Shown here piece by piece: positions 24,319 to 64,000 of a stretch of DNA of 64,000 nt; position 1 is the stretch's first letter; each line of letters begins with the position of its first letter. The notes below the pieces were generated by a model. That model searched no databases, had not been told where the DNA came from, and saw only the letters and a list, made by a program, of their open reading frames with translations. The stretch spans positions 434,001 to 498,000 of the forward strand of contig NW_026515690.1 in assembly GCF_025526975.1 (NCBI RefSeq), in the 5' to 3' direction. Position numbers and translations under genes: made by a program. This DNA is from Fimicolochytrium jonesii. Lineage: Eukaryota.

Positions 24319-24468
24319 TTAGGGTTAAGGATTATTAGTTTGGGAGACTAGGGTTAGGGACAGGGTTTATGGTTGTGGGGAGGGTTAGGGTTATGACAAC
24401 TGACATTAGGGTTGAGAGTGAAAGGTTGGGTTAGGGTTACCTGCGGGTTGGAGTAAAAAGGGTTAAGG
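24319..24468 (+). repeat. Degenerate interstitial telomere-like (TTAGGG) tract
   Basis: Several TTAGGG/AGGGTT units (e.g. ~24319, 24349, 24381, 24406, 24431) interspersed with variant units. Confidence 0.65.
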
Positions 24469-25408
24469 ATTCCAGGCCGTTGCGTCATGATCGGCCAAGG
24501 TCCTCGTACTCCACAATTTTTTTCCCCAAAGTTTTCCTTTCTCTCTTCGACTTTCTGCACATGCAGCTGTCCAAGAGCTTTTGCTAGGTTCACGCCATGA
24601 TTGGTTGGCAAGCGGCGTCCCGTTCACTATGGGCGAAAGTATTAGAGGACGGATGATGTATTGCCGCACCGGCGCCGATACATCCCGAATGTATCAAAAC
24701 TTTCGAGCGAACGTCTTCTCAGGAATGCATCATGCGCTCCAAAAACAACAAACGCAGGGAGCTTGCAATGGACATTTTATTATCCCGAACAACATGGGCA
24801 TGATGAAAAAAGCGTCATGACAATTTTTATCGCCTGTCAGAAGGTGTTCGGGAGTGCCGTCATCTCAAGTTAGAAACCCCTGCGTATCGTCCCGCCAACT
24901 ACCAGCTCTTTCACGGCATGGCGCTGACCATGAACCGGAAGCATTCGCATCCGGTCAAGAAATACCAATCGTTTTCGAGCAGGAAAAGACAAACCTAATA
25001 CATATACAAATTTGCTTTTGGTGACATCTCAACGCGTGGCTCACGCGAAAACATCCCAAACATCCTGCTCTGCACGCGCTAGGCTACGTCAGCCAGTTGT
25101 CACGGACGGAGGACTTTGCCGAACTTTGCAAGTTGTTTTTCGCTGCATATAGGACATGGAGCGCGTGCGTAGGATCTGGAGAGTGGGCAAATCTGCGGGG
25201 CGATGGATATTTGGTTGCGGGACAGCCCGTCGGCTCGCTTTTTCTTTCCCGAGGGTGACGCAAGAAGGGTGTGGGATAAAGTGCGAGATGGTCGAGACGG
25301 GCAGCTTCCGAAGTATAAAAGACCGTAAGGTATGCCGCTCCTCCTCGAGATCCAGCACAGCTCTCGCACCCCTCCTCCCCCCTCATCGCAAGCGGCAACC
25401 AAGCAAAG

Positions 25409-26905
25409 ATGGTCTCCAACATCCTGCACACTGTCCTCCTAGCAGCGAGCCTCCTCCCCCTCGCGCACGCGGCGCCCGCCGACACCTGCAAGTACAAGGG
25501 CGCCCTCGTCAACTGGCAGCTCTTCAAGACCTGCAATCATGTCTGCAACCTCTACACGCCCACCACCGTCGCGGAGGCCCAGGCGATCGTGCGCAACTCC
25601 CTCGCCCTCGGCCGCGGAGTGAAAGCTGTCGGCGCAAGACACTCGTACACTGATAACCTGTGCAAGGAGAACGCTGATTTCATCGACATGACCAAGTTGC
25701 ATAACATCATTTCGATCAACAAGGACGAGGGGTGGGCATACTTCGAGGCTGGGACGACCTTTGGGGCGCTCGAGATTGCGTTGAAGAAGGAGGGTATGAC
25801 ATATGGGTTTGCGGCGCCCGCGTGGCCGCTCATCACCGTCGGCGGCGCGCTGGCGAACAGTGCGCACGGGAGTGGGTGGACGACCGGAGGCCCCATCACT
25901 GTGCCCGCCGCGACGTTGGCCGTGGACATCATCAACCCTCAGGGAGAACTGGAGACAATCACGGATGGCGACAAACTCGCTGCAATTAAGACCAACCTCG
26001 GCCTTCTCGGCGTTGTGGTCCGCATCAAGTACGCCGTGCACCCCTCCCGCAAGATGCGATACAGTCTCGAAGTCGTCTCCGACAAAGACGCCATCGCCGA
26101 CGGCCTCCTGTCAATCGTCGAGAAACAAGCCGGGACGATCGGGTGGTACATCCCCTCCTTCCAGACCATCGCGCTTGCCAAGATGTCCCACGCCGACGAC
26201 TACAGCGGTCCGCTGGCCTCCGGATCCGCTATCACCAACACCATGCAGACTTTCCGCCGCAATGTGCTCAGCAAGGCTATCGCGTGCAAGCTTGCCCTCT
26301 GCCCGTCACCCATCTCCAACAGCTCCGTCGTCCCCGTCGTCGGGTTGGAAGAGGACGTGATTGGCGGCGTTTCGGCCGTGTATGGCGATATTCTCAGCGT
26401 TATGGGCAAATTCGGGATCGTGCTCCCCATCGGTGTTGGCGACGACGAGTACGCGCTGCCCATTTCGCGTCACCAGGAGGCCATCGCGGCGGTAAAGGCC
26501 ACGTTCAAGGAATACCACGACATCGACATCAGCATCAAGGGCGTGTCGGCGGCCCTGCCCTTCGTGGAGATCCGCTTTGCGCCCGCGGAGGACACCGCGT
26601 ACCTCGCGCTCAACACCGACTCGGACCCGGCCGTGTGGGGACAGGGTACCGTGTGGATCGAGGTATGGTTCTTGACCTCCGAAGCAAACGAGAACCAGAT
26701 TGGGAAGTTCAGGAATGCGCTCCAGGCCCGTTTGTTGGCGCTTGGCGCTCGCCCGCATTGGGGAAAGACCAGGGAGGTTACCTTCCAGGGCGGGGTTAGG
26801 GACCGTTATAACGGCAACTTCGCCAAGTTTGAGGCGGTTCGTCATGCTATGGACTCCAAAAACACCTTCATGAACGAGTTCGCTACTCGTGCTGGTATTC
26901 AGTAG
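25409..26905 (+). CDS. Secreted FAD-linked aldonolactone oxidase-like protein (GULO/ALO, VAO family), intronless
   Basis: Signal peptide; VKAVGARHS (covalent FAD His), ITVGGALANSAHG, NLGLLGVV, EIRF, RPHWGK, DSKNTFMN; TATAAAA at ~25314. Confidence 0.9.
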   Translation: MVSNILHTVLLAASLLPLAHAAPADTCKYKGALVNWQLFKTCNHVCNLYTPTTVAEAQAIVRNSLALGRGVKAVGARHSYTDNLCKENADFIDMTKLHNIISINKDEGWAYFEAGTTFGALEIALKKEGMTYGFAAPAWPLITVGGALANSAHGSGWTTGGPITVPAATLAVDIINPQGELETITDGDKLAAIKTNLGLLGVVVRIKYAVHPSRKMRYSLEVVSDKDAIADGLLSIVEKQAGTIGWYIPSFQTIALAKMSHADDYSGPLASGSAITNTMQTFRRNVLSKAIACKLALCPSPISNSSVVPVVGLEEDVIGGVSAVYGDILSVMGKFGIVLPIGVGDDEYALPISRHQEAIAAVKATFKEYHDIDISIKGVSAALPFVEIRFAPAEDTAYLALNTDSDPAVWGQGTVWIEVWFLTSEANENQIGKFRNALQARLLALGARPHWGKTREVTFQGGVRDRYNGNFAKFEAVRHAMDSKNTFMNEFATRAGIQ

Positions 26906-33635: not shown

Positions 33636-35436
33636 TTATTCCCTGAAAATGCAGAAAAAAAAGCAAGTCAGTAAACGAACGACGACGACGACGAGAACAA
33701 CGACAAACGCAGGATTTCGATTCGCACTTGAACTCTACACTCACGACCTTGCCAAGCATGACAGCGGAGTTACCTAGAAGGGGAGAAGGTAGAGTGAGAA
33801 GCTGAACGAAAACAAGGAAACGATCGCACAAAAAGATCTTTACCGTCGAGGAAAGCGATACGAGAGAGACCCTCGCAGTTCTTGAAGGAGTCGACAACGA
33901 GGGGCTGGATGGGCTCCATGACGACCTCAGCGGCTTCGTTGGCCTTGAGAGAGTGGGCACCCTCGAGCTTCTTCATACCGGTCTCCTTGCCCATCTTCCA
34001 GTTGATAGCCTTCAAACGGCAAGCGGAACGACCACATCGGACGAAACCGATGGGAGAGTATCCAGGCTTGACTTCACCAGGGATGTCAAGAGTCTGGATC
34101 TGGGCGACGAAGGACTTGACGGGCTTCAAGGACTTGTCCTCCTTGTAGATCATAATGTCACCGGCGCGGGGCATGTTGTTCTTGTCAAGACCCTTGATGT
34201 TCATACCGATGTTGTCTCCGGCCTGACCCTTCTCGACCTTCTTGTGGTGCATCTCGACGGTGAACACCTTTCCAGCGCAAGCGTTGGCGGTGGTGTGGGT
34301 AGGAACGAAAATGACATCCTTGTTGGGAAGGACGGCACCTTGCTCGACACGTCCGGCGAGGACATCACCGACACCCTTGATCTTGTAGATACCGGAGATG
34401 GGAACGCGCATGGGAGCATCGTTCTTGCGCTCGGGCATCTCGGCGAAGTCGTTGAGAGCGTCGAGGAGAGTGTGCACCTTGACCTTCTTGCCGGACTGAG
34501 TGGCAACTTCTTGGCCAGAGTACCAGCTCATGTTGGCAGACTTCTTCAACAAGTTGTCTCCTTGCCAGCCGGAAATGGGGATGACAGGGACGTTGCCCAT
34601 GACGAAGTCCTTCTTCCAGCCAGTGCGGATCAACATGTTGCGCATCTCGTTGGCGATTTCGTCGTAACGTTCCTTCTTGTAAGGACCAGCGGGGTCAGAG
34701 TCCATCTTGTTCACACCAATGACGAGCTGCTTGACTCCCAACAAGTTGAGGAGACGAGCGTGCTGGCGAGTCTGGCCTTGAATTTCACCAGCCTTGTGGT
34801 CACCCTTCTGGATGGCGGTGGTGAAGTTACCATCGGCCGGGACCATGAGGAGACCGACATCAGCCTGGGCCTGCAAGTTTGTGAGGAAGGCAGAAGAGAG
34901 AGAGGGGGGCGAGAGTGAGTATGAGAGGGCACAAGGGCTAATCGAACGTCAGGATGTCACCGCGATCAGTACTTACGGCACCAGAGATCATGTTCTTGAT
35001 GAAATCTCTGTGTCCGGGGGCATCGATGATGGTGTAGTGGTAGTTGGTGGTGAAGAACTCCTTGGTGGTGCAAGCAATGGTCACACCACGAGCACGCTCC
35101 TCCTTCTGACGGTCCATGTAGAAAGCGAAAGCGAACGAAGACTTCCCGAGGTGTTCGGCCTCCTGACGGAGCTTCTCCATCTCACGCTCGGGGATACCGC
35201 CGAGCTCGAAGAGAAGACGACCGGTAGTGGTCGACTTTCCAGAGTCGACGTGTCCACAGATGACTGTTGAAGGAAGGAGAGAAACGGAAAAGCGTTCAGT
35301 TCATCGACTCAAGACCACGAACCCATGTCAAGCGGGTGATCTGCCGTTCGAGCGACCATAGTGTGAATGGCCCGAAATCAACCCGGCACAGCGCACACTT
35401 ACCAATGGACAAGTGGGGAAGTTCCTTGGTGGCCAT
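33636..35436 (-). CDS. EFL: Elongation factor-like GTPase EFL (EF-1alpha paralogue)
   Basis: [85 protein letters not shown] and [11 protein letters not shown] are EFL-specific. Confidence 0.96.
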
Positions 35437-40685: not shown

Positions 40686-41047
40686 GTTGTATTGATATCT
40701 GCCGAAATTGAGACTCTGTTCTACCGGAACCTTCTTTAGGAGACCTACTGCTGCTCTATGTTTTTCAGGGACGCTTCTCTCGACCTCCTGTGTGCGGTAT
40801 TGGCGGCGGATCAGTCCAGTCTACCTGACCGGGTCTGAGCAATGAGGAACAAAGTCGTAGCGGCGAGCAGGGGGCATCCGCGCGTCACACTCGGACGACA
40901 TGAAATCAGTCCTGAAATCGAGGACTACAAATCTGACTACAAATTCGAATCAATTCTGAGACAAGACGTTGCCAACTCCGGTGCTTTAGCTTTCGACCAG
41001 ATCCGACTCCATCCCTCTGCCACGGAGGCGGTCAGAGCAAGGTAAAG

Positions 41048-43215
41048 ATGCTGGCAACGACGGGCAAAAAGGCGCTCTTGCCGGCATGGCGAAGTGCCCG
41101 CACATCTCCCTCCGTCCGTATTGCGACGCTTCCTTGCGACATACGGAGACTTGGGACTACTTCAACACCAAATTCGCTTGCGGCTCGGTCCCTTGCAGCT
41201 GCTTCCTTCGGTGCTTCGAAGGTGCGCTCCACTCTGACGACGGGCCGGTTCGAACTCTCGAAAAGACACGGATTCGCTTCAGCAGCGGTGGCCGAGGCCG
41301 TCGAAGAACCGACCTACGCTGCCCCGAAGACTCCAGGCAGTTCTCTGGAAGATCTGCGCTACTTCCTCAAGCTAGTGGCAGAGCAACAGATTGAGGTTGG
41401 GGAACGGGACGCGGCTTGGTTGACTAGAACGGCTGCTGCGTTGGGGGACGACACTTTACGGATTGCGTTCGTAGGAGAGCATAGTGCAGACGTTATCAAT
41501 CTTGTCGGAGCAGTTCTGGAAACGTCTCTTGGTGGAGTTGCACCAGTAGGCCAAATCCAGCGCATCTCTTTTGGTTCAGGCAACGCTCCCGCCTCGGGAT
41601 CTGACTTGACGAGTCCAACTCCCTGGCTGGCTAAAAACCGCGCCGAAGTCCTTGCAGTGCCGGGATTTGACAAGATCGATGCATCCCAGCTAGAGGATGT
41701 AATCCATCAAAGCGATCTTGTCGTCCTCGCGACTCGAGTTGCGAATCGGTTAACCAGTCCGCGCGAAACGGAGTTCCTGTCAAAGTACATCGCGAGTGGC
41801 AAGTCGAACGTCATCGTCACGGTTGACGGCTTGCAACAGGAAGGATCGGAGACCTTGAACGCGCTGGAGAGCGTCAGGGAGCGACTCAACTTCTTCGCAC
41901 CAAAGTCTTCTCCGGGTCAGCCACCTTTAGCGATAGTCCCTGTCGATACACACAAAGCATTGGAAGCACGCCGTTTATTGAAGAGTTTGAACCCTGCTGG
42001 ACCCACCCCATCAGTGTTCCTGAAGGATCTGGAGTCTTCCGGGGTCCGTGATGTTGAGCTATCGATTGTGTCGCATATCGATACGCCAGCTGATCGCGTC
42101 GAGTTGAAGCGAGAATCCGCCATCTTCACTGCCACACAAGCTTTGACACGCCTCCAGAACACCCTACAATCCGCAGATACCGCCCTGCAACAGGCGCTCG
42201 ACGACTTGGACTCGTCGATTGCACGCGTACTGAAAACGAAGGAACGGCTCGTTCGCGATTTCCGCGGCGAGGATTTGGCTGTAGTCAATGGCAGCACAAC
42301 GGCTTTGCGGGCAGCTGTCCGTGAGTACTTCACTAAAGTCCCCTTCTGGAAGCTAGTCTGGCGCAATGACTTTGTGGCGGATGACCTGAAGGTCAGGATG
42401 CGGGAGCACACGCTGCTACAAGCAGAATACCAGATGGTGTATGCGATGGGAAAGTTGAACGAAGGCGCACGATCGCTACGCGAAACAGTCCTGGAACAAG
42501 TGGACGCTGTATTGGACCCGAAGTCACATATCAGCGCTGCGTCCAACGTGAACGCCATCAAGGACCTCCTACTGGAATTAGAGCGCACCCGTATCCTCAT
42601 TATCCGGCAAGGTGCTGCTCGACCTCTTGGACCAAGCACATCCGAAGCCAAATCCACACCTGAGTCGGGATCACTTATCTTCACCCCCGCCGACCCTTTC
42701 CTTCTCCGGAACCGCATTGCGACATTCGATGCCACTCGCCACTGTGATGATCTTCAACGTGATGCACAGAAGCTAGTTGTGAGGCAGGCCCTTTTCCAAG
42801 GCGCTCTCTATACCACTTTGCTCCTTGTCACCCACTTTGGAGTGCCGTTGATCTCCGTCGGGCTGCCAGTTGCACTCATTTCCTCCGGCGCCGGACTGGC
42901 TTGGATGAGGCTGCGATGGCGGTTGCTGGAGCAGAGGTTCTGGGGTCGGGTGAGCAACGGTCACGACACGCTCAAGGAAGATATTTTGGTAAGTCACCAC
43001 TGTTATGGACGCATCCATTCCTATATTACGATATTCATGGCGAAAACATCCTATAGACTGCATTTGAGCAGACCACAGATCAGCATCTCGTCGAGCCGGT
43101 AGCAGGTATCGTGAAAGTCATCCGCGATGCGGTTGACGAGCGTAGACACAAGGTAGTGGACCTCCAAGCAGCCGTCGATGCGGGGTTGACCCGGGCTCGC
43201 GAGCTCCGAAAGTAA
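41048..43215 (+). CDS. Mitochondrial membrane protein, Mmc1-like (degenerate dynamin/GTPase-like N-half, two C-terminal TM segments)
   Basis: Arg/Ser-rich presequence; FWKLVWRNDFVADDL resembles the Mmc1 C-terminal WWKL.WR.DD motif; TM hairpin followed by LRWR..E.RFW. Confidence 0.6.
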
Positions 43216-44025: not shown

Positions 44026-44092
44026 TTATGTTCGTTTTGCCGACGGAAGTCTTGTCAGTTTCAACGCAATATCGGTGGTCGAAATCGAAATA

Positions 44093-44429
44093 CAGTAACT
44101 TCTCGTTTATTTCAATTCCGGTTACTTCAACTTTCGCTTATTTCAACGGTCAGAGGGTTAGGGTTAGGGTTCGGGTTCGGGTTACATTGACTTTGACAAC
44201 ACTGAGAGCACAAGGCTTGAGCACACTGAAGAGTTCATTGCTCGCCAGATTCTTAGTGAGGAAGGGTTGGAGGTTATGGGGTTAGCCTAGGGAGTGCCTG
44301 TTAACCGAGCTTAGCGTACGTTTTAGTTGCGCACCTGTTTGTATACCCTTAGTATGAGGAGGATTTTAGATATTTCAACTTTTGCTTATTTCAAGGGTCA
44401 ACGGTGTTGAAATAAACGAGAAGTTACTG
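44093..44429. mobile_element. Non-autonomous Tc1/mariner-pogo-type MITE (337 bp) with internal TTAGGG repeats
   Basis: Perfect 23-bp TIRs CAGTAACTTCTCGTTTATTTCAA (44093-44115 and 44407-44429), TA on both sides, 30-bp internal direct repeat (44123-44152 and 44371-44400). Confidence 0.85.
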
Positions 44430-44944
44430 TATTTGAACATAAACCCCTCTTCAAAACCGTCTGAGTGCATCGCGTTGATATAGATACTGAAATGTTCCTA
44501 CTTCTTACCCTAACCCTAAACCTAACACTAAGTCCTCCCGTAGTCGGGCATCTCGTGTACACATTTTTCTGTTACCGTTCCCAATGGATTCCGTTCGAAG
44601 GTTGTGCTTGCTAAGCTTCTTTTCTTTTGACTCGAGCGTGTACAGTATAAATACATCCACATCCCTACCCCATCCTCATCCCTATCTCCTTTTTGTTCGA
44701 GCAAATACACCTAAGGATCATCGGATGCACAATGTCCTACTCCAGACTAAGCATTTGCTCTCAATCCTTTTACAATTCGTCTCTACTCACAGAGAATTTC
44801 TCTGCCTTCAGAATCCCTTACAAATACATGGTACGGGCAACGCCGGAAGCAGCATTTGAAAGGGTTTTCACCCAGAGTGCACTAGTCACTTCGTGAGTGT
44901 TATGGACGACGCGCCCATACTATAATCTTACCTACTGACAGCCT

Positions 44945-46704: not shown

Positions 46705-48383
46705 CGGTGAACTATGTTGATATTTAGTGCAGTACGACAGCGGTGCCCTACCAACATCTCTTTTCACGAGATGTTTGCCCGGCGAATGGCGCCGCCGATA
46801 GAACGTACCTGGGCACGGCGCCGTCAGGTGCAGTCCGGGAAGGTGTAACATCAAAGGAAACATAGACGATATTGGGCCCTTCCGAGAGGGCTGAGAGCAG
46901 TGTATTGTAGTGAAAAAAAAGTGAGAAGCTCTTCGCAGCGGGCGCTTGACTGACAGCTTTATATATGGGCTGCCAGTGGGGCTTGCGTGGCTTCAGTGAG
47001 GCTTGGCGCCTTATGTGATGTATCACCGAGAGCTCGGGTGGCCAGCCCGGGTCTCGGATCAAGTAGAAGTAAAGAGATATAATATGAAATACAAGTGAAG
47101 ATGAGATATCCCCGACAGAAGGCCATAGGACACAGTGTCAATGCGGTCTCGTGCGTAGCTCGGGGCATTTGGGGCGTGGGTGTAAAACTTGCGGTCAGTG
47201 TGAATCGGGTCCCATCTTTCCTTTTGACACGAAGCTGAACACGTCTGGAAAATTGACTTACCCGAGTACCTGGGTTGGGAGGGCGGGACGCGTCGCGTAC
47301 CGCCGGTACTCGTACCCTAACTTCTCGCACCCCCCACTCTCTTTGTAATGAGGTGCTGCAGGTGTCACCTTAGTGCGGGGAAGCGCGTAGGGCATGAGAT
47401 CACGTGTAGCATAGATTATATTGGAGTCCTACGCTCTGGGTGACTCCCGAAGGGAAGAAAAGCCTTCGGGCGGCGCCCCGGGAGGTAGAAACTCTAGAAT
47501 TCTTTCAATACATCGAAGCGGAGACAGAGCCTCTGGCAACGGCCCCAGCAATATTACACTCTTCTTCTCTCATCCCGAGCCATTGCAACACACATATGTA
47601 CACTGCTTCCCTTCCCCAAGCCCATCGTTTCTCACCTCCTTATCCACATACTCGGTGCATTGCTTCGCTCCTATTGCCCATCATCCAGGGCATCAATCGC
47701 TGTGCTAATCCATCAAGCAACCGCTCATCGCGCTGACATCGCCTCGTTCGCGAAAGGAAGCTTTGAGTTGAAAGATACCCATGCATGCGATGACCACAAT
47801 CTGGCTTCGCTTTCGATATCTTCTGACTTCAAAACAAGGAAGGAGGTTCATTCCATTTGAGGCGTGCCCTTGTTTTCACCTGAAAAAGCGATAGCTTATG
47901 GGATCACTTACCTCCGCATGCCACCTTCCAAGATCCCACGGTCCTTACCATCTCTTGTACAGCATCATTTGCACTCCCTACCAGCCTCACAGTCACAAGT
48001 ATCGCGTATGTATCCGATTCTGACCCGCCGTCTGTCTGTCCGTTGATTGAAATGGCTGACCATTGAGCGCCGGATTGGAAAGCCATGCGACGCGACTGTC
48101 AGAAACGCCATCAACGCCGTACGGCCGACCGCACACCGCTAACCTTTCACATTCGACTTCACAACGACGTACGCACTGATGCCTTACCACACAAGCTTGC
48201 CTCCTTCTCTTCCTTTGCCTTCTCTTGCGATACAATGTGATGGCGGAGCCTGAATATAAAAAGGGGGTTTCCGCCTGAGTACCACCCATTCGCCTGCATC
48301 AAACATCCTCATTCCATAGCATCCGATCCGGGCATACCCACATTAGTCGAACATAATCAAATTTAGACCTCCCGCCCAACAAA

Positions 48384-49407
48384 ATGTCGATCCTCTCCCA
48401 GCGCAGGAAACCCTCAGCCTCATCACAGGAACAGTCGGCGCCTTAGCCTTCATTGCCCTCGTCCTCAGCCTCGGCTTCACCAACCTCCAAAAATCCGATT
48501 CCGCCGCTTCAGCTGTCCCGACCTGACGTCCAACGGCCTCGAGTACCCTGGCACCGTTGCCCCTGACGATGCGGCGCTCAACATCCTCTACACGGTGGGC
48601 AAGTTGGATCCAGTCACCGACGAGACTGCCAAAGTGTTTATAGGAATTTACCCCGTGGGGAGGTTGTCGCCGGTCAATACGACTGATCTCGAGCAATGGT
48701 TTTCCGAGATTTTGGAAGCGAGGATTACCGCTCCGTTCACTATTTCGACATCGTACAAGACGTTTAGTTTCAAAGCGGGCGACCGCGTGCAGCTGCAGGA
48801 GCAACTCATGCCCATCAACGACGCAGAACGCTACCCGCTCGACGACCACTCCCTCACCGATAGCATTACGGCCACCTGGATCGACCCCGCGACAAACACC
48901 TCCGCCGTCCTCCCCGTCACCGTCATCGACAATTCAATGCAACAAGGCTGGACCTTCCTCCTTGATCCGTCCGACTCAACCACCATCTCCTCAATCCTCG
49001 ACGAAAACAACAAAAACACCAACCTCCCCCTCGTCCCACAACCTGCGTGGAATTACGCCGTCACCGCCCACCGCAGCACAACCACAAAAGTTATCTCGTT
49101 CGGAATCATCGCCCTCATGTGGACACTCTCTCTCACCTACTTCATCGTCGGCGTCCTCGTCGTCTCCGCCGATCGCAAGGTAGCTCTCACCGTCGCGGCC
49201 CTCGGCGCAATCCTCATGTTTGGCATGAACGCGCTGAGAAGCGTGCAGCCAGGGGTGCCCTTGACCGGATGTATTGCAGACACGTTTGGGTATATGTGGA
49301 ATATGAGTATTCTGGCTGTGTGTTGTGTTCTGGCCGTTGGGCACTACTTGGTCAGAGTCAATCGCCTGCCGAGGGTGCCGGCAGCCGTGGAGGAACATAA
49401 GGTGTGA
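48384..49407 (+). CDS. DUF4436-like membrane protein; 5' part interrupted by two apparent 1-bp frameshifts
   Basis: YPLDDH, HRSTTTK..IIALMW, LFG/MFG..LRSVQPGVPLTGCIADTFGYMWNM resemble DUF4436 (YPFD.Y, R..LPGAPP.G..D..F.W). The N-terminal TM lies in another frame (48410-48520). Confidence 0.65.
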
Positions 49408-54296: not shown

Positions 54297-54753
54297 TGGT
54301 GTCGCAAGCGGGGGCTGGTGGGTGGTGAACGGGGCGTCAGAAGAGGTCTGGGCTTGAATTTTGGAGAAGAACGAAAAGCTGGAGGGAGAAGAAAGCTGAA
54401 GAAAGACACGGTCACTTGAAACCCGACTTGAAACCGTATGAAGGCTATTGAGGCTTTTGCACTTTTTGCAGGGGCATTGCCAACGAATCGACCCCACCAT
54501 CTCAGTTTCACCCAGAGTTTCACCTCCGGGTTTCTGTGGACCTTGCAATCAGATTCGCAAACGTTCCAGCCGCCAACACATCATCAGTACAGTACGAAAC
54601 CATCATCAGTACAGTATGTATGTAGGTGTTTCAAAGCCCCAATTACAGTCCCACCCCGGTCCATCCGCTCGCCCCTCTCATCCAGTCCGCCTTCAAATGA
54701 CAGCCGGAAAACACTCCTAACCCCATCCAGATTCCCCCGTCGAAATCCCAAAC

Positions 54754-55131
54754 ATGATTCGGTCCTCCATAACCTCAGCGTTATTCCTAACAACCCTGGG
54801 TGTCTTGAACCTCTGGGACCCAACCATCTACATTTCAATGTACGATATCTACCTGGAAAGAGGAAATATCGCCGGCAAATCCGAAATCCGCGCCGCACTC
54901 GGCGGCCTCCTTATCGGTCTCGGGTTCGCACTGTACAAGGCGCAGACGTGGGATCGGGTTCGCGACGGGGTGGTGTATACTGTGATGTGTGTCGCGCTCG
55001 GGTCGGTGATGGGAAGGCTTTTGAATGTGGTGGTTGAGGGGGAGGTCGGCGGCTGGGTGAATGTTTTGGCGACGGTGTTTGAAGTTTACACTGCCCGGGG
55101 GTTGTATCTGGAGTTTATACGGACAGGGTGA
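54754..55131 (+). CDS. DUF4345-like small 4-TM protein, intronless
   Basis: SEIRAALGGLLIGLG and GRLLNVVVEG resemble the DUF4345 motifs (E.R..GG...G; GR.....DG). Confidence 0.65.
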   Translation: MIRSSITSALFLTTLGVLNLWDPTIYISMYDIYLERGNIAGKSEIRAALGGLLIGLGFALYKAQTWDRVRDGVVYTVMCVALGSVMGRLLNVVVEGEVGGWVNVLATVFEVYTARGLYLEFIRTG

Positions 55132-56035: not shown

Positions 56036-56452
56036 TGTGAAAGTGATCAGGCTGACGGCGCACAAGGAGATGGGGAGATGCAAGGGAAGATTAGTACTTG
56101 TGCGCGCGTGACCAGGCGTGATCAGTAGTAGGATAGAGACACACCCCCTTCCCCCCCACTATAAAAAGGACGACACTGGCGTAGATTGCTTGGGGAGCAT
56201 CTTGCCGGCTACAGACTAGACCCTAAGTTTGTACCATAAGTGCCCAATTGACCCAACAGACTAGCGTACCTACGCCTAGCAGTCCAGGGTTGCCAATATA
56301 CGGAGTACGCCCAAGCGTGTCTACTTGTGTGGTGAGAATAGGGATTTAGTTGGTCTCTACCTTTTACCTTGCACTCTCCACGAGTAGATTACCTCCACCC
56401 GCGAACAACCCGATTTAGGACCTATCCCAGGGAATAATCGACCACTTTCACA
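56036..56452 (+). repeat. 5' long terminal repeat (417 bp, single copy in window)
   Basis: TG...CA ends with perfect 10-bp inverted termini TGTGAAAGTG / CACTTTCACA; internal TATAAAAA at 56160-56167; PBS-like sequence directly follows. Confidence 0.8.
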
Positions 56453-56455
56453 TTT

Positions 56456-56476
56456 TGCGGCAGCAAGAGGATTTGA
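56456..56476 (+). promoter_or_regulatory. Putative tRNA primer-binding site
   Basis: TGCGGCAGCAAGAGGATTTGA, 3 nt after the LTR; its reverse complement TCAAATCCTCTTGCTGCCGCA looks like a tRNA T-loop plus acceptor 3' end (one base short of CCA). Confidence 0.6.
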
Positions 56477-56492
56477 GCGAGCCCACTGGAAG

Positions 56493-57735
56493 TTGAAGAA
56501 TGACATCTCGGCGAGATTCAAAGGCAAGCCGGGCGTGGATGCATACGCATTCCTGGAGAGGCTGAGACAAGAAGCTCAAAGGGCCGTAGACCAAAGTACT
56601 TCGAAAATCTCGACGACATGGTGCCCAAGTTTGGTCCCCTCTTCAAGGATGGAGCGAAGAAATGGGGGAGCAGCCTGTCGTCGACCAAGATTCCATTTGA
56701 GCAATTCAAGGAACAATTCATGGCTCAATACGACGAGAACATACCCCCTATCTACCGCTCGGCGAAAGTAGCCAGTATGAAGAAGCTCAAGAAGGAAACG
56801 TCGCGCGACTTTGCTATTCGGATCAAGGAAGCCAATTCCCGTCTTGGCACCAACCCCCTAGACCTAGGCCAGCCCAAGTATGCCTTCTATCAAGATCACA
56901 AGCCTCGCGAGCAAGACAAGATTGAGGAAGTCAAGATCGGGGGCAAGGACTGGTACGACGGGGCGGTGACCTTCGACCAATTTGCGGAAGAAGCGTACCA
57001 AAGAATCGACAAGAAATGGTTACGAAGCCGGCGCCGCGCCTGTAGCTTCTCCTCATCCTCCTCGGACTCGGAGTCGAGCTCTAGTGGCTCCTCCTCTGCT
57101 TCTTCCTCAGAAGAATAACACAGCCGTCGTTGCCGGAACAAGAAAACAACATGAGGTTCCGGCCCCAGCGACGAGGATCCCCGTCGCCCATTCTGAAGAC
57201 GGCCGTCCAAATTGCCCCGCCAAGTCCCATGCCTACCACCGACATCGAGAAGCTAGCTAAACAGGCGGCGGAGAAGGAGATAACCAAGTTCAAAGAGGAA
57301 CTCCGCTTGACCGGTAGCTGACGCGGACAAATGGGACGGGCCGTACACTTGACGGAATTCGACGACGACCGGGGTGATTACTCCGGTTACAAGGCGTACA
57401 TGATGGACCAACGACAAGGTCCATACCCCCGTCAGCCGTACCCGCGCAAGGATTACGGCCAGCAGAGGCAGAACGACCTCAGTACGCAAGTACAGGAAGT
57501 TGTCAAGAAAGCGGTTGTCAAAATTGCCGCGCAAATGGCCAAAGTGCAGATTAACAATGGCCAGTCCTCGGGAGGACCACCAAGGATTGGAGACGGAAAG
57601 TGTTACGCCTGCGGAGGCGACCACTTCAAGGATGATGTGGACCGCGAGACGGGGAGACCAGTATGCCCCAAGAAACAAAGCCCTGAGGCAGGAAATGCCA
57701 ATGCTGAGAAGCGGCATTTTCCCCGCCAGGGCTAG
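56493..57735 (+). pseudogene. Retrotransposon gag (frameshifted, with stops)
   Basis: RFKGKPGVDAYAFLERL, AKKW..FEQFKEQFMAQY, KKETSRDFAIRI (retrotrans_gag-like), Ser-rich tract, Zn-knuckle-like CYACGGDH..C; lesions at ~56594, 57116 and 57319. Confidence 0.8.
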
Positions 57736-60113
57736 GAGCTGAGAGCCTCCTAGTCTTGGAACCAACGGCTCTTGAGCAGGAAGACCCCGGAGAATCGCTG
57801 CCTCAAGACCAGGATGAAAGCCTGACCTTTCCTGCTCGGTCACCATCAGAACCGAGAAGAGGCAGTGATTCCGACTCCAAAAGCGACTGGGGGACGCGCG
57901 GAGGAATAACGACAGCTGACGAATTGTTACAACCCCAACACCTGTCCAAGTCGGGAGAAGAAAAACCCGACTCGGAGGACCCTGACCAAACACGCTACCC
58001 GTCTCCGCCACCCGAAAAGGAACTCTACTTGATCAACCTGGTTGACAAGAACGATTGGCAATTGCACCCGGACATCTTCCAGCAACTCGATGACGGACCC
58101 TGGGGAGGCCCACACAGCCACACCGTGGACTTCTTCGCCACGATGCAGAACGCTCAAGTTCCAAGGTACTGCTCGGTCGACCAGAAGGACATCAATGCAA
58201 TTGCCCATGACGCCTTCAAGATTCGCTGGGACGCTGAGAATGGCTGGGCCAATCCCCCTTGGCTTGCCATTCAACAAGTGCTCGACAAGGTCGTCACGGA
58301 CGGAGCGACCATTACGCTGATTACCCCCGTATGGCGAGAAGCTCCGTGGTACCTTCAGCTCCTCACGCTCCTCATTGACTATCCAAAACTGCTGAACCAC
58401 GAACGAGACCTCTTCGCCAAGGGCGGCTTCAGTGAACAAGATGAAGGTGTTTACGGGCTCCCACCCTGGGAACACACCGCGGCATGGAGAATCTCCAGTG
58501 ACTCTGCTGCCATTCACCACTTCCGAGACCGGTTGCGCCAAGCTTGGACTTTCAAGACCGGCCCCCGCCATGTCAAGCGCCTGCCATTCCAAGACTGCTA
58601 CGCAGGGACTCTGTCCTTTCTACGCATTCCGTTCCGGACAATCCTCTCCATCCGTCGGCGCCCACCAGCGACAGCGGACAAAAAAGGGGAGGAGGACGCC
58701 AAGGCGGTGGCAATTGACACGGCCATATTGGAAGCACACGAGAAGGGTGCACTGGAAGAGATAATGCTTCTGGAGAAGACGGTCAAGCCACGGAAACGCA
58801 AGGCATTGAAGAGAGAATTCCTCGACAGCCTTGTCTGGAAACAAGTCGGAACGGACGAGTACGATCCCAAGGCGCAATTCTTCCTGAAAGACTTGACGAT
58901 AGTCACGGGAGAATTGCTGAGCAAGGCAAGACGGTACCTCGACGTCCGAGAAAAGTACAAGATCACCGCGCATCCTGGGGACGACCTACCCACCCAGGAC
59001 ACGTGGATTGCTCCGGTGGCTGGAAATGAAGAAAGATTCCACGCCTGGAAAGAAGCCCAAGAGCTGTACCTCACGCACGACCGCATGGTCATTCCTCCCG
59101 ATGAAGGAAAAGAGGACACCCTCCTTGATTCCCTTCATGCCCACGTTGAAAAGGACACGACAAGTAGTCCTGACCTACGCAAGATGTACACCATTGCGCA
59201 AATCTACGGGAAGATTGAGGACACGCCTCTCGATGAGCTCGTTGTCGACACTGCAGCGAGTCTCAACGGCATGGACGCTACGTTCTACATGATGCTGAAG
59301 ACCAAGCACGGCTCGAAGATCAAGGCCACCAAGTACGAGCGCAAGCTGTCGGGAATTGGCGAAGGCCGTTCAATAGGCCACCTTGAATTGAGAGTCAAGC
59401 CCGGCGTCAATGGAAGGCACAGTTACAAGTTGAAGTTCAACATCATACCCAACTTGTGACGACCAATGCTTATCGGCATCCCAGGGCTCGACGCAATGGG
59501 GGCAGTCATGGACATGGAGAAGAGATCATTCGCCTTCCGACTACCGACCGAAGAGCAAATGACCACGCCCATGAAGATAACGCTAGAAGACCATCCCCTT
59601 CACACCCACCTCCCGACGGTCGCTCCGCTAGGGCCATCACGCTACAACGTAGTCATCAAGCAAGACCGAGTGGTGTTGAAGCCAATGGCGGTGACGCACG
59701 TACGGGTCGGCGGAACGAACCAAGGAATCCCCGGAACGACATACCTCGTCGAAGGCAACAAGGCGTTAGGCGAGTCAGGCATATGGTGTGCGAACCAACT
59801 CGGAAAGGCCGACGAGAACGGAGAATGGCTGTACCCAGTCGCGAATCTCACGCCCAGGAAGCGCATCCTTCGGAAGAATCATGTTGTCGGAACGACCGTG
59901 CATCTCCCCATCGACGTCCTAGAGAATGTTGTTGAGTTCCTCCCGCCGCTGCAACGTATTCGGGTGGCGATCGGCCTTCGCTTGATATACCTACGTAACA
60001 AGACCCTTCCGCTACGCTTTCTGGAACGGCAACACAATGGCACAACCGACCCTCATCAATCCCTCAACTGCAACAAAAGCCATAGCGGTGCGTTATACCC
60101 TCAGCATCCCTGA
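57708..60113 (+). pseudogene. pol 5' part: N6-adenine DNA methyltransferase (58053-58497), retropepsin (~59190-59540) and dUTPase-like region; one in-frame TGA at 59457
   Basis: MT: DWQLHP..VDFFA..NAQVPRYCS..DAF..W..WANPPW..VLDKV..LITPVW..PWY. PR: VVDTAAS..LSGIG..LIGIPGLDAMGAVMD. dUTPase-like: VLKP..THV..VANLT..LRKNHVVG. Confidence 0.85.
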
Positions 60114-60169
60114 CGCAAGCTTCGTCAAAAGGGCAAATAGATCTTTTGGACGTTTGGAGAAACACACCG

Positions 60170-60397
60170 ACGCATCCGCGAACGATCATGTCGCCGTCCT
60201 CCAGTGGTGGGCAACCGAGGGCGTTGCAAACGGCTTGGAGTGCAAATACAACCTTCGCAGCCGAGCAAGGGCATGTCGCGGTCCTTCAGTGGTGGGCAAC
60301 GGAGGGCGTCGCGAACGGGTTAGAGTGTCGGTATGATCCGTCAGACATAATGCTGCTAGCTTCCAACTACGATCAAGTGGACATAGTTGGAAGCTAG
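60170..60397 (+). pseudogene. Ankyrin-like repeat fragment
   Basis: Two copies of HVAVLQWWATEGVANGLEC in different frames (~60188-60243 and ~60272-60329). Confidence 0.65.
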
Positions 60398-61256
60398 CGG
60401 CATCCGGCCCGGTCCTCCTACCCAGGCCGGTGGGAGGAATATACACTTGACCGGGGAGGGGCAAGGACAATCAAGAGGGGTGGCAATGATTTGTGCACAC
60501 TTCCAGGATATGAGTACGTGAATTGTTTTCTTATAGAGAGATGTACAACAGTAATACACTGACCAGTAATGGTTCTACTCTTCATCGGCTACTTCCAATT
60601 AAAGCACAAGAAAACCCGTGGCCGGGAAACCCTTCAGGGTCCACCACGACCACCTGCTCGTAAACGTCTTCCCAGGCTCCTCAGTTTTGAATTGTAAGCA
60701 GGGTGGGAGTGAGCGAGAGAAGCAAGTGAAGGATTATGGAAGTAGCCGTTCATCATATGCTCGGCCTAATCATGCCAGTTTGAAGGGGAGACTTAGGGGC
60801 CTCTTTCCTCGTGCGGAACTGAAAGCGGCGCCTAGTCATACCCTCTTAAAAAGGACCTCCAACTTTCGGCCATGTGGACTTCTACCTCATTATTAGTTAC
60901 TCATGTCAATTTTAAAAGCCCGCACCTCATAATAAGGTGAGAAGGTCGGACTTGGGTTACACGCGTAGGTGTTTATTTGTCGCGTCACGATATGAATTCG
61001 ACTGTGGAAAAGGATACTGTACGTACTACATATACAGTACGAGTTGGTATGGGAGCCGACTCTGCGGCTCTGCGGGCAAAGGTCTTTCGGCCGCAGCGCC
61101 CTATCACACAACTTGCCACTAAACATAAGTTCAGGTTCTGCCGCCGCGGGCGATGGCTCATAATCTCTTTGCAATGCCGCTAGGTGCATGGCCTAGATCT
61201 ACGTTACTCTCTCTCCCACCCCAGTGTGCGGGCACCTCCGCTCGGTGCAACAAACG

Positions 61257-64000
61257 ATGGGGTGCGCACCCAGCAGGCAAATGGGTGAGAACCCCCGAGA
61301 CAGCAACAAAGCGAAAGAGGACAGGGACACCTCACCGCTGTCCAATATCAAGATGGACGTGGACGTAGTCAGTTCACCTCTCCCCGTGCTTCCATCGACG
61401 ACGACGATCGCCAAAGCGGAGAAAGTCTTGGATAAAGTCGATCTCATCTCTGGAGTTGTCGAGGCTAACGCTGCCGTGACCATTTATAACAAAGCTCAGG
61501 CAGTCCTTGGAAAGTTCCCGGAAGGGCTCTTCAGTCTTCCCGAAGATTCAAGAGGGGTGCAGATCATCGACATGATCATGGGTGCAATGGATAATCTGAC
61601 GAAGGTTTGAGTGCACTCAGGACATGAATATCGCTGCGTCAACGATATCTCACTTTCGTCCATTCGGAACTTTAGGTTCATCCCGCCGCCCGGATAGCGT
61701 GGGGCTTCATATCCGCCGCATACGATGTAAACTGTTGAAACATTTGACTTTTGGCATTTTTTCGTTTGCTTACCTCTTATCGAAAACCTGCAGCTTTTCA
61801 AGGGCCAAGCCAAGCTGGAACGTAACATCATTGCCCTGTACGGGACCTTGGATCATCTTCTGAAGTCTCTACTCTTGATGTACAACGCCATGCATGCAAA
61901 TTCGGAAAGCCGTAGCCAATCCGATGTCCCCCAAGCTCTTGAAACTACACTCCAGGACCTGTTTGAGGAAATGCGGAGCTTTACGGAATGGTTCGAACGG
62001 TACATCGAGAATCTTTCTGCAACGGGATTCGTCGGTAAGGATTTTCTATTACTGTCCCAGACGCGAGCTGTCTTGGCGATCATTTGATTTCTCCGGTTGC
62101 GTTCATTCCAGGGCGAACATTAGAAGAAACATTCCAGGGCAAGGGCCAAAGCCGCTTGGAACAGTTTCAGGCAAAGTTCGAGGCATTGGACAAGCAGCTC
62201 AGCCGCGACACTCTTCTTCGACAGTTTGTTGATATTCAGCATATCAAGCGTACGGTCGATAACGTCAGCATGAAAGTGGAGAAAATGGAGAATACGTTGG
62301 AGATGGTTTCTGTCGCAAGCAGTGGCAATCACGATTTGCATTTTCAACTTTTCTTGACAACGGTTCAAGCCAATAATGTTGATTTACTTCTGCGCTGGTT
62401 GAAGGACAAACACCCTCCGCTGGTTAGTCGGTTGGCCCTTACTGCTAAAGGTACTGATAATGTGTTAACCCACAAATACATTCAATAGTCGACTCGTGAT
62501 CATAAAGGTTGCTCCTTTATATGGCACGCCACCAAATGTAATGCGGAACAGTGTCTTGAAATCTTATTGAAAGAAATTCCTGCGAACTCGAACACAATCG
62601 TCGACGCTGATGGGGAAGCAAGCCTTACGCCGTTGCATATCGCGGCATGGCATGGTTATGAGGGTTGCTTGCGATTGTTACTCAGCCATGTCAATGGCCG
62701 GGGTCTGTTACAGTTGACCGATGGCAACGGTCAAACACCGTTGCATATCGCGGCATTACATGGGCATGAGGGTTGCCTACGCTTGTTGCTCAACCACGTC
62801 GATGACGCGGATCTTTCGAAATTGAAAGATAATTCCAAGCGAACTCCTCCCGATTTGGCGGCAACGAATGGAAAAGTGGGCTGCCTTTCGTTGCTACTCG
62901 AGCACCAAGGGGAACGCCTTCGTCCCGTGCTACATGACTTGATTGATCAAGCCGGCGAGCATTCCGATTGCTCGCGATTGTTGATTCGCCACGGGAAGCC
63001 CGAAGATTTCAACTATGTTCCTGGAGTCCTTCCTTTCGAAGAATGCGCTACTCTTTTGCGTTTCAGCGTGGGTTGTCGTACGTGTCTCGATTTCTTCTTT
63101 GTCTCGGTGAAAGAGACTGGGTTAAATATTTCCTTATTCTTCCAGGATCGATACCGCCTTTGTTCTACAATTGGACACATTCTCGGCATAGGCCAAGGCT
63201 TCCTTTGACATTGGCTGGGGGGATATTGGATCAATTGAGGATACGCTGGACGGATCCCAAGGAATTGAATGATTCCCACCTCGGAAAGTTCAACGGTGTC
63301 GGGCTCGTGATTGATGTTGACTCATCCGAGGACGCAAGTGCCGAAATGAAATGTACTCGGATTGCCGAGTTCCTGAGTGGCCCGGTTAAGCAGATATGTG
63401 ACAGCGGCATGGTCATGCATTTTCATTGTGAGTACGATGGTTTCCTGTGATGCAGCTGCTCTGAGACATCGACGTAAAGTATCTCACTTTTCTATATGCC
63501 GTTTACTGTATATTGCAGTTGAAATCAAGAAAGATGATTATGAGCTCCACGGTCCTCTTAGCGTGTTCAGCGACTTGCAAGACGAAGACTATTGGGGGGA
63601 TATTGACAACCCCAACGCGCAACTTCTCCAGTGGATTCTTGAATTTCCGGAAATTGTCCTAGGCTACCACCAGCTCGATGGACGTCTGGCCAAAGTATGG
63701 ATCAACGGGTCTCAAACTTTCCTGCTTGCCGGTACGTAAGGCCGGCGTCCCCGCTTTCTATATCTTGCGCTTTTACTCAAATTTCATGAAACAAATGCGC
63801 CCCAGACTGGTTTGACGCGAAAAAAGTGTGCGATGATTACTGGGATCCTATTCGGAGTTCGCTACTTGGGGCACTTGTCGTCGATGGCAGTGTCAAACAT
63901 TTGACTCTCACGGTCTCTTATTTAGCCGGCAATCTCGCGAAATGGGCAGATGGATGGCTAAATGATCTGAGGGAGTTGCTGTCGTTTCCTAGAAGTCTGG
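61257..64000 (+). CDS. Multi-exon ankyrin-repeat protein with helical N-terminal domain; probably runs off the window end
   Basis: MGC N-terminus; coiled/helical exons 61.3-62.4 kb; TPLHIAAWHGYEGCLRLLL, GQTPLHIAALHGHEGCLRLLL, RTPPDLAATNGKVGCLSLLL. Confidence 0.75.

Follow-up and report, generated by a model that had tools for sequence, protein, structure and literature searches.

The 64-kb window, that is, the whole stretch of DNA analysed, contains what is likely a dead, broken 5' half-copy of a Ty3/Gypsy-type LTR retrotransposon, whose pol frame opens with a predicted N6-adenine methyltransferase (MT) domain followed by a retropepsin (Table 1). The MT very probably belongs to an LTR family as a built-in component. 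The sequence-only reading of this DNA had taken it for the first Pol domain of an LTR lineage, and this arrangement proves to be a family trait, marked by a shared MT-protease order, a common MT clade and the lack of RNase H. Its suggestion that the domain order might be new does not hold for the concept, which has already been published together with a model of N6-methyladenine (6mA) mimicry: the DAM-LTR retrotransposons, MT-bearing Ty3/Gypsy elements, were first described in 2026 (Fernandez-Moreno et al., bioRxiv 10.64898/2026.05.21.726589). If the domain is active, the transposon would label its own sequence with the mark that the host uses for active genes.

Table 1. Features of the element and of the sequence at its right-hand limit, in window positions.
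Feature	Position	Strand	Basis or remark
5' part of decayed LTR retrotransposon	56036-59891	+	LTR, PBS, broken gag, pol opening with MT then retropepsin
Single (5') LTR, 417 bp, TG...CA	56036..56452	+	Terminal inverted repeat
PBS-like word, 18 nt, complement of tRNA 3' end	56455..56472	+	Sequence anatomy
Decayed gag, three frames	56500..57735	+	Retrotrans_gag and sequence
Atypical zinc knuckle C-X2-C-X3-H-X13-C	57601..57666	+	Sequence
pol frame, 583 stop-free codons	57708..59459	+	-1 frame relative to gag end, 28-nt overlap
DIRS-type Dam/PCIF1-like N6-adenine methyltransferase domain (predicted)	58041..58511	+	Profile, relatives, fold
Family-specific linker	58512..59165	+	Partly conserved in P0002, P0107 (33-37% identity)
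Retropepsin-type aspartic protease, DTA 59247-59255	59166..59552	+	Broken by TGA 59457-59459
Conserved post-protease segment	59553..59891	+	38-42% to P0002/P0107
Host-like decayed F-box and ankyrin-like sequence, outside element	59898..60340	+	Pfam, both below cut-off

The LTR-like segment starts with TGTGAAAGTG, ends with CACTTTCACA, has a 10-bp perfect terminal inverted repeat (12 of 13) and contains TATAAA at 56160. Two nucleotides past it begins a primer-binding-site (PBS)-like word whose complement shows a T-loop, a 5-nt T-stem arm, a 7-nt acceptor arm, a discriminator G and CCA with one mismatch; by general tRNA rules the discriminator G presumably indicates a Ser-type tRNA, and no tRNA gene is found in the 64-kb window. 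Taken singly, both signals occur at chance level in the 64 kb (30 Markov shuffles gave 7.5 terminal-inverted-repeat pairs of the LTR kind against 9 observed, and 6.6 PBS-like words against 7). The chance of a PBS-like word lying 0-5 nt from a given site is about 3e-4, and the pair also stands upstream of gag. These features point to a TG...CA LTR followed by a tRNA-type PBS, the latter recognised by its anatomy only. The LTR, PBS and gag initially reported are all present, the LTR as a single copy with no second one in the window and gag in a decayed state.

More specifically, gag is disrupted by two or more frameshifts and by a stop within its frame, and includes a Ser-rich tract and a C-terminal zinc-knuckle-like motif without a Pfam match; Retrotrans_gag aligns to 56504-57115 at E=0.002, below the Pfam cut-off. 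Pol would be produced by a -1 frameshift at the gag/pol overlap. The MT shares its stop-free frame with the protease active-site word DTAAS (59247-59261). The frame that the sequence-only reading called uninterrupted from MT to protease does include this word, but a TGA then interrupts the protease, which is broken in this copy because the stop precedes the second conserved protease motif. The family protease profile matches the retroviral-like protease domain of DDI1 (3s8i) over the full domain length at E=0.005. No known domain was found in the linker between MT and protease, the ESM Atlas gave no usable match to pol 100-583, and a PHROGs search returned phrog_22740 alone (E=0.02). The gag and protease matches are weak and consistent in position, and a gag followed by a pol with an aspartic protease suggests an LTR retrotransposon.

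The element was first thought to extend to 59950; homology to relatives ceases at about 59891, a truncation point before the reverse transcriptase (RT). Here the truncated pol is fused in frame to sequence resembling F-box (E=0.0026) and Ank_4 (E=0.06). No target-site duplication was found near this break, and a search of the entire 64-kb window revealed no RT, RNase H, integrase or recombinase.

With no RT recovered, the Ty3/Gypsy label is indirect; judged by the order of the remaining parts, the carrier is likely of this type. Retrotrans_gag, the gag/pol overlap and, in the relative P0002, a gypsy-like pre-RT stretch placed after the protease fit the Ty3/Gypsy order, whereas in the copia order integrase comes next after the protease. 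With a profile of 11 gypsy pre-RT sequences, the part of P0002 past the protease scores above all 200 shuffles (9.6 vs 6.7 bits); two smaller pre-RT profiles score below shuffles (3.3 vs 10.8 bits and 6.8 vs 10.3 bits). That the MT is integral to some other protease-bearing LTR group is improbable, given this order. Such a carrier would be consistent with the weak gag match, the lack of both RT and integrase in the window and a family protease that finds no match in a gypsy-protein profile (best E 0.013).

The MT has 4657 relatives at E<=1e-3. When the best 150 of these were screened for the MT-protease order, three (P0002, P0107 and P0007) and no others were found to possess a protease matching that of the window (E 1e-16 to 1e-39) downstream of the MT, and P0002 keeps the order of the window throughout nt 58041-59891. 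In a tree of 68 rows the MTs of the window, P0002, P0003, P0004 and P0007 form a single clade (support 99/94). In none of six family proteins is the MT preceded by a trace of RNase H (best score 0.2 bits), in contrast to the six DIRS controls, all of which score 75-134 bits and two of which doubled as profile seeds. GC3 is 0.63-0.71 over MT, linker and protease, without a compositional seam, and the reading frame is open across both MT junctions. Were the domain a DIRS fragment nested by chance in an ordinary Gypsy copy, relatives would be expected to lack it. DIRS-type proteins do make up 108 of the 153 classified MT-bearing proteins, and the window copy is decayed, but three diverged proteins with the same domain order, the supported clade, the flat GC3, the open frame and the absence of RNase H and recombinase remnants make such nesting extremely improbable. 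DIRS1-like features are lacking at the window, where no RNase H precedes the MT, no recombinase is matched and a protease follows.

Protein, viral, prokaryote and metagenome searches recovered no relative with RT-RNase H-integrase or paired LTRs. A word-index search for the MT region among longer proteins yielded 0 of 148 candidates, and one for the MT alone yielded one of five (P0001); among 5891 proteins of 1559-4450 aa the family profile found only P0151, in the order protease-MT-RT. DNA scans were negative for viral contigs (0/6 and 0/13 candidates) and prokaryote genomes (0/26). The metagenome scan retained 54 of 122 candidates, all approximately 25-38% identical; the MT is followed by a recombinase in 50 of the 54 loci, and the family protease occurs in none. 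Across the matches the MT occupies at least four sites in Pol (before protease, protease-RT, RH-IN and after IN), and the MT origin tree tentatively places the family as sister to gypsy RH-MT-IN elements with a support of only 87/87.

The motifs DWQLHP (58053-58070), DFFATMQN (58128-58151), NPPW (58251-58262) and AWRIS (58482-58496) lie exactly where they had been placed, with the SAM-loop-like word DFFATxxN and NPPW both intact. The expected assignment as an N6-adenine methyltransferase is borne out by a confident methyltransferase fold (predicted model, pLDDT 90.9) and falls short in Pfam, where Dam reaches E=0.0035, below the cut-off; single-sequence prediction gave low confidence (pLDDT 37). 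The predicted structure resembles CAPAM/PCIF1, a methylase of RNA caps, as well as Dam-type enzymes of phages. Viral models rank phage N6-adenine DNA methyltransferases first (E from 3e-8). In two structure searches the top solved structure is CAPAM/PCIF1 (PDB 6irw, 6irx), with Foldseek E-values of 2.8e-4 and 4.7e-4 as the sole two matches at E<=1e-3 and, by VIA, Z 11.4 (rmsd 3.5, 155 aligned), compared with 7.7 for T4 Dam and 7.3 for E. coli Dam; rRNA adenine methylases follow CAPAM in the ranking. This ranking may reflect library gaps, because a solved phage structure of the PF05869 type is absent from the match lists. Sequence searches of the PDB with the MT or an MT-only profile found nothing relevant, and a mixed RH-MT profile reached PCIF1 at E=1.2 only.

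The ranking of CAPAM and rRNA adenine methylases, together with a Pfam PCIF1_WW match in P0007 (E=0.005), raises the question of an MT active on RNA, at cap-adjacent or internal adenosines of the element transcript. RNA as the substrate would also account for the lack of DNA 6mA in dam- E. coli expressing DAM (bioRxiv 10.64898/2026.05.21.726589). This reading is nevertheless quite unlikely, since within the viral set the better matches are DNA methylases of the phage Dam type, the WW and helical parts of CAPAM are missing from the 160-residue MT, and the ranking itself may be a matter of library gaps.

The favoured function, held tentatively and at slightly below even probability, is that the MT methylates the element's own DNA at N6-adenine. 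In active copies the domain would be packaged with Gag-Pol in the particle, possibly released by the protease, and would place N6-methyladenine on new cDNA or an RNA:DNA hybrid; following the model of Fernandez-Moreno et al. (bioRxiv 10.64898/2026.05.21.726589), the host AMT1 system could then take up the mark, such that new insertions would resemble active chromatin. A non-catalytic role is nearly as likely as DNA methylation. Somewhat unlikely in itself, an MT with weak or no catalytic activity that binds nucleic acid or SAM to assist packaging, priming or targeting would agree with the negative E. coli assay, with eukaryotic DAMs that miss part of the prokaryotic domain (both from the same preprint), with the description of DIRS MTs as "likely inactive" by Iyer et al. 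(in the available part of PMC4738411) and with the at least four placements of the domain. Against it, all five family rows keep both NPPW and the D-x-F-A-T-x-x-N word at just 42-53% identity, and DAM-LTR copies are richer in 6mA in three species (bioRxiv 10.64898/2026.05.21.726589). The same preprint reports higher expression of DAM-LTR copies, in line with the favoured function. NPPW is also kept in P0001. Identity within the family is higher in the MT core than in the protease (42-53% vs 30-45%), a contrast biased by the choice of relatives by MT similarity. NPP[WFY] is retained in 111 of the best 150 of the 4657 relatives, DIRS included, and is no pointer to 6mA mimicry because it also occurs in DIRS from hosts stated to be without 6mA (bioRxiv 10.64898/2026.05.21.726589).

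The host genes of the window resemble those of an early-diverging fungus. They include one with Mmc1_C (Pfam) and a factor distant from EF-1alpha, which scores 200-214 bits against eEF1A of yeast and animals and which by its motifs we take to be EFL. Fungi with EFL include Spizellomycetales (PMC9457484). According to the available part of PMC12695648, 6mA is high on expressed genes in Spizellomyces, and early-diverging fungi (Spizellomyces, Mucorales) combine abundant 6mA with genetic tractability. ApT sites flanked by TAT/ATA are rarer in pol (14/95) than in ten host ORFs (110/442; p=0.03); this depletion was rejected as evidence of 6mA, given p=0.06 for gag and pol together and a span of 0.12-0.48 among individual host ORFs.

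Five DAM-LTR lineages have been named (chlorophyte, chloro-ochrophyte, ichthyosporean, Pyropia and Euglena). The main text of that preprint contains no occurrence of 'fung', 'chytrid', 'protease' or 'gag' and no protease-adjacent MT, and the only DAM position it states is between RT and integrase; the architectures of its Fig. 2B could already include the MT-before-protease order (bioRxiv 10.64898/2026.05.21.726589). Beyond this work, the openly searchable literature yielded no paper that describes an LTR element with an adenine MT, nor is one mentioned in the available excerpts of PMC12477816 and PMC6338049. DAM-LTR detection used a Pfam cut-off of 1e-5; the Dam E-values of the present family (9e-5 to 0.06) miss it, and the family may therefore be an overlooked lineage, which suggests that published DAM-LTR counts are underestimates. 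A more speculative and, as a whole, unlikely proposal is that of a sixth, fungal DAM-LTR lineage, missed at that cut-off, with a catalytically intact MT at the front of Pol (Gag-MT-protease) that would place 6mA on the cDNA within the particle and thereby pass on to new copies the mark that active genes bear in early-diverging fungi rich in 6mA; the MT of this lineage might have been relocated from a DAM-LTR of the RNase H-integrase type, not taken afresh from DIRS. Because this layout puts the MT at one end of Pol, the domain could be removed or altered while RT and integrase stay untouched, making the role of DIRS and DAM-LTR MTs easier to test.

Among known systems, phage Dam-type enzymes (PF05869) give a weak Pfam match and a strong viral-model fold match at 12-19% identity, whereas the window MT is embedded in a retroelement polyprotein. 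CAPAM/PCIF1 is the best solved-structure match, yet at 14-15% identity, and is a large enzyme that acts on RNA caps and carries additional domains. DIRS1-type elements have in common with the window the motif series DWxL, DxFA, DAF, NPP[WF] and PxW; as described in the available parts of PMC3783388 and PMC4738411, their MT directly follows RNase H, without a protease or a TG...CA LTR with PBS, whereas the window family has no RNase H before the MT and a retropepsin downstream. With the DAM-LTR elements the window family has several features in common: a DIRS-related, apparently DIRS-derived DAM domain in the ORF of an LTR element that is Ty3/Gypsy-like in the published lineages and probably so here, a conserved Asn-Pro-Pro pocket (NPP[aromatic]), a small five-strand fold and the same proposed 6mA mimicry. 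The window family differs from these in placing its MT ahead of the protease and in its likely fungal host.

The order of methyltransferase (MT) before protease in the window element, a decayed 5' part of an LTR retrotransposon, is a trait of its family, here the window pol and database proteins P0001, P0002, P0003, P0004, P0007 and P0107. A full HMMER scan returned 4657 MT relatives at E<=1e-3, and among the best 150, which were retained for analysis, three match the window protease downstream of the MT (P0002, E 4e-25; P0107, 8e-40; P0007, 1e-16). In P0002 and P0107 the similarity extends to the linker and post-protease segment. An 11,016-bp contig is the source of P0001 and likewise of P0107; the two probably represent the parts of a single frameshifted copy and are therefore counted once. 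Classification of 152 proteins and the window pol (Pfam check on 28) gave 108 of DIRS type, 25 MT-only, 13 of gypsy RH-MT(-IN) type and 4 MT-protease, one of them the window; in 2 the order is protease-MT-RT, and in 1 the MT comes after integrase. Among individual relatives, P0141 is a gypsy Pol with the MT after integrase and P0151 one with the MT between protease and RT. P0073 (2382 aa; protease, EEP endonuclease, MT, RT, RH, integrase) is an LTR Pol bearing both an endonuclease-fold domain and an MT.

An IQ-TREE phylogeny of 68 of the 150 MT rows, from which 43 partial DIRS, 25 further DIRS and 14 MT-only rows were left out (P0001, P0107 and P0152 had been removed at an earlier stage), unites the window, P0002, P0003, P0004 and P0007 in one clade (99/94). 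Its sister group, ten gypsy-borne MTs, reaches only 87/87, with the bootstrap not fully settled; FastTree on 150 rows gives 0.99 and 0.75, respectively. This clade and the recurring order bear out the proposal of an earlier sequence-only reading that an LTR lineage carries an MT ahead of its protease. The contrary case which that reading had raised, a DIRS fragment nested by chance in one Gypsy copy, is very unlikely, because the order is shared by relatives, the MTs form a well-supported clade, all six family proteins lack an RNase H remnant upstream of the MT (six DIRS controls, two of them seeds of the profile, score 75-134 bits) and GC3 is flat over MT, linker and protease. A separate MT clade (P0009, P0006, P0014) is well supported (100/98); in P0009 a dUTPase immediately precedes the MT, and RT, RNase H and protease were not detected there.

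The Pfam Dam profile matches the MT weakly (E=0.0035, 17.5 bits; cut-off 28.1). Its structure model (pLDDT 90.9, alignment of 74 sequences) has human and zebrafish CAPAM/PCIF1 as the only Foldseek matches among solved structures at E<=1e-3. A wide structure search again placed CAPAM/PCIF1 first (Z 11.4, rmsd 3.5, 155 aligned), with T4 Dam at Z 7.7 and E. coli Dam at Z 7.3; among viral models the top named matches are phage N6-adenine DNA methyltransferases, followed by giant-virus PCIF1-like proteins. On these solved-structure and viral-model matches the predicted fold is that of an N6-adenine methyltransferase of the Dam(PF05869)/PCIF1 group, upholding at fold level the assignment first made from motifs. 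The substrate cannot be read from the fold by itself; RNA-cap methylation appears improbable. NPPW, present in 5/5 family rows (42-53% identity), is presumably the catalytic motif and DFFATxxN the SAM loop. An Asn-Pro-Pro pocket described for DAM domains in the accessible part of a preprint (bioRxiv 10.64898/2026.05.21.726589) is a basis for naming NPPW catalytic.

Features of the window copy (window coordinates)
Feature	Position	Strand	Remark
LTR-like segment, 417 bp	56036-56452	+	TG...CA ends, 10-bp perfect terminal inverted repeat
PBS-like 18-mer	2 nt past 56036-56452 segment	+	sequence
gag, in three frames	end at 57735	+	atypical zinc knuckle at its end
pol frame	57708-59459	+	583 codons without stop; MT motifs and DTAAS (59247) within
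DWQLHP	58053	+	MT motif, pol frame
DFFATMQN	58128	+	MT motif, pol frame
NPPW	58251-58262	+	MT motif, pol frame
AWRIS	58482-58496	+	MT motif, pol frame

All four MT motifs lie where first reported, and the TG...CA segment, PBS-like word and gag are indeed present upstream of pol. Inverted-repeat pairs (9 vs 7.5 by chance) and PBS-like words (7 vs 6.6) occur in the window at chance frequency; an inverted-repeat end adjoining a PBS-like word has a chance of ~3e-4 per site. The single frame claimed for MT and protease extends through DTAAS, but a TGA (59457-59459) splits the protease, and gag carries at least two frameshifts and one stop. Homology to relatives stops at ~59891, not at 59950 as first proposed, and F-box/ankyrin-like sequence starts there. 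A second LTR is absent from the window, and its six reading frames lack RT and RNase H as well as integrase and recombinase. The copy is incapable of activity, a dead copy of a real family. Decayed F-box/ankyrin-like sequence (59898-60340) continues the reading frame of the truncated pol; an ankyrin-repeat gene lies further right (61197-63208).

Elsewhere in the window, long unbroken ORFs at 25319-26905, 48367-49407 and 54721-55131 (all +) carry FAD/ALO oxidase, DUF4436 and DUF4345 domains; the two DUFs are found chiefly in bacteria and may have been acquired horizontally. A Mmc1_C domain gene lies at 40937-43102. An elongation factor gene (33770-34948, -), only distantly eEF1A-like (200-214 bits against chains from yeast and animals), is taken from its motifs to be EFL. 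Together with Mmc1_C, it points to an EFL-bearing early-diverging fungus as the host. Early-diverging fungi listed with EFL include Spizellomycetales, Blastocladiomycota, Basidiobolus, Olpidium and Rozella (PMC9457484, accessible part). The region 44088-44520, with a 38-bp inverted repeat pair (44088-44125/44397-44434), telomere-like TTAGGG repeats (~44153-44184) and CCCTAA (44508), may be a small non-autonomous element or else telomeric sequence in an interstitial position; more TTAGGG-like words occur at 24362-24439.

The retropepsin expected after the MT has no Pfam match in any family member, but a five-sequence family profile matches the DDI1 retroviral-like protease domain over its full length (E=0.005), with the D-S-G site and later LLG motif. 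No full-length relative emerged among 148 longer candidate proteins; the family profile on a larger set found one among 5891 candidates, of another domain order. Metagenomes gave 54 loci, all distant, none with the family protease and 50 with a recombinase; viral and prokaryote scans gave no relatives. Since no relative with RT was obtained, the Ty3/Gypsy label originally applied rests on the gag match, the overlap of gag with pol, and the end of P0002. That end is colinear with the stretch preceding gypsy RT; it scores 9.6 bits against at most 6.7 in 200 shuffles with an 11-sequence profile, but does not exceed shuffles with 8- or 3-sequence profiles.

A -1 frameshift may yield Gag-Pol, placing the MT in the particle beside genome and cDNA, where it would methylate adenines; after integration host AMT1 would keep the 6mA mark. 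The chances of this model are put slightly below even. It is weakened because no 6mA was seen when representative DAM domains were expressed in dam- E. coli (accessible part of bioRxiv 10.64898/2026.05.21.726589), DIRS MTs were judged likely inactive and PCIF1-derived (Iyer et al., PMC4738411, accessible part), and NPP[WFY] is retained equally in DIRS (111 of the best 150 of 4657 rows overall). The main rivals to the model are a non-catalytic binding role of the MT, rather unlikely, and cap methylation, less likely still. TAT/ATA contexts are somewhat rarer in pol (p=0.03), within the spread of host genes and not counted as evidence. In Spizellomyces, according to the accessible parts of two sources, 6mA lies on expressed genes and 5mC on transposons (PMC12695648), and DIRS were not detected in the genome (PMC3783388).

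The sequence-only reading knew of no description of this domain order; the concept of MT-bearing LTR elements is, however, already in the preprint, the only paper on adenine MTs in LTR elements that literature searches returned. Its main text describes DAM domains for the first time outside DIRS, in LTR elements of five lineages, none fungal (bioRxiv 10.64898/2026.05.21.726589). In that text 'fung', 'chytrid', 'protease' and 'gag' are all absent; the architectures of its Fig. 2B could include the MT-protease order. Its screen used E<=1e-5, and the six family proteins scanned score 9e-5 to 0.06, below detection. The new part may be a lineage, likely fungal, in which an intact MT opens Pol, with the reservation that the preprint's figures could make it just a new member. 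For its DAM-LTR elements the preprint, in its accessible part, advances the same 6mA model as that proposed here for the window element.
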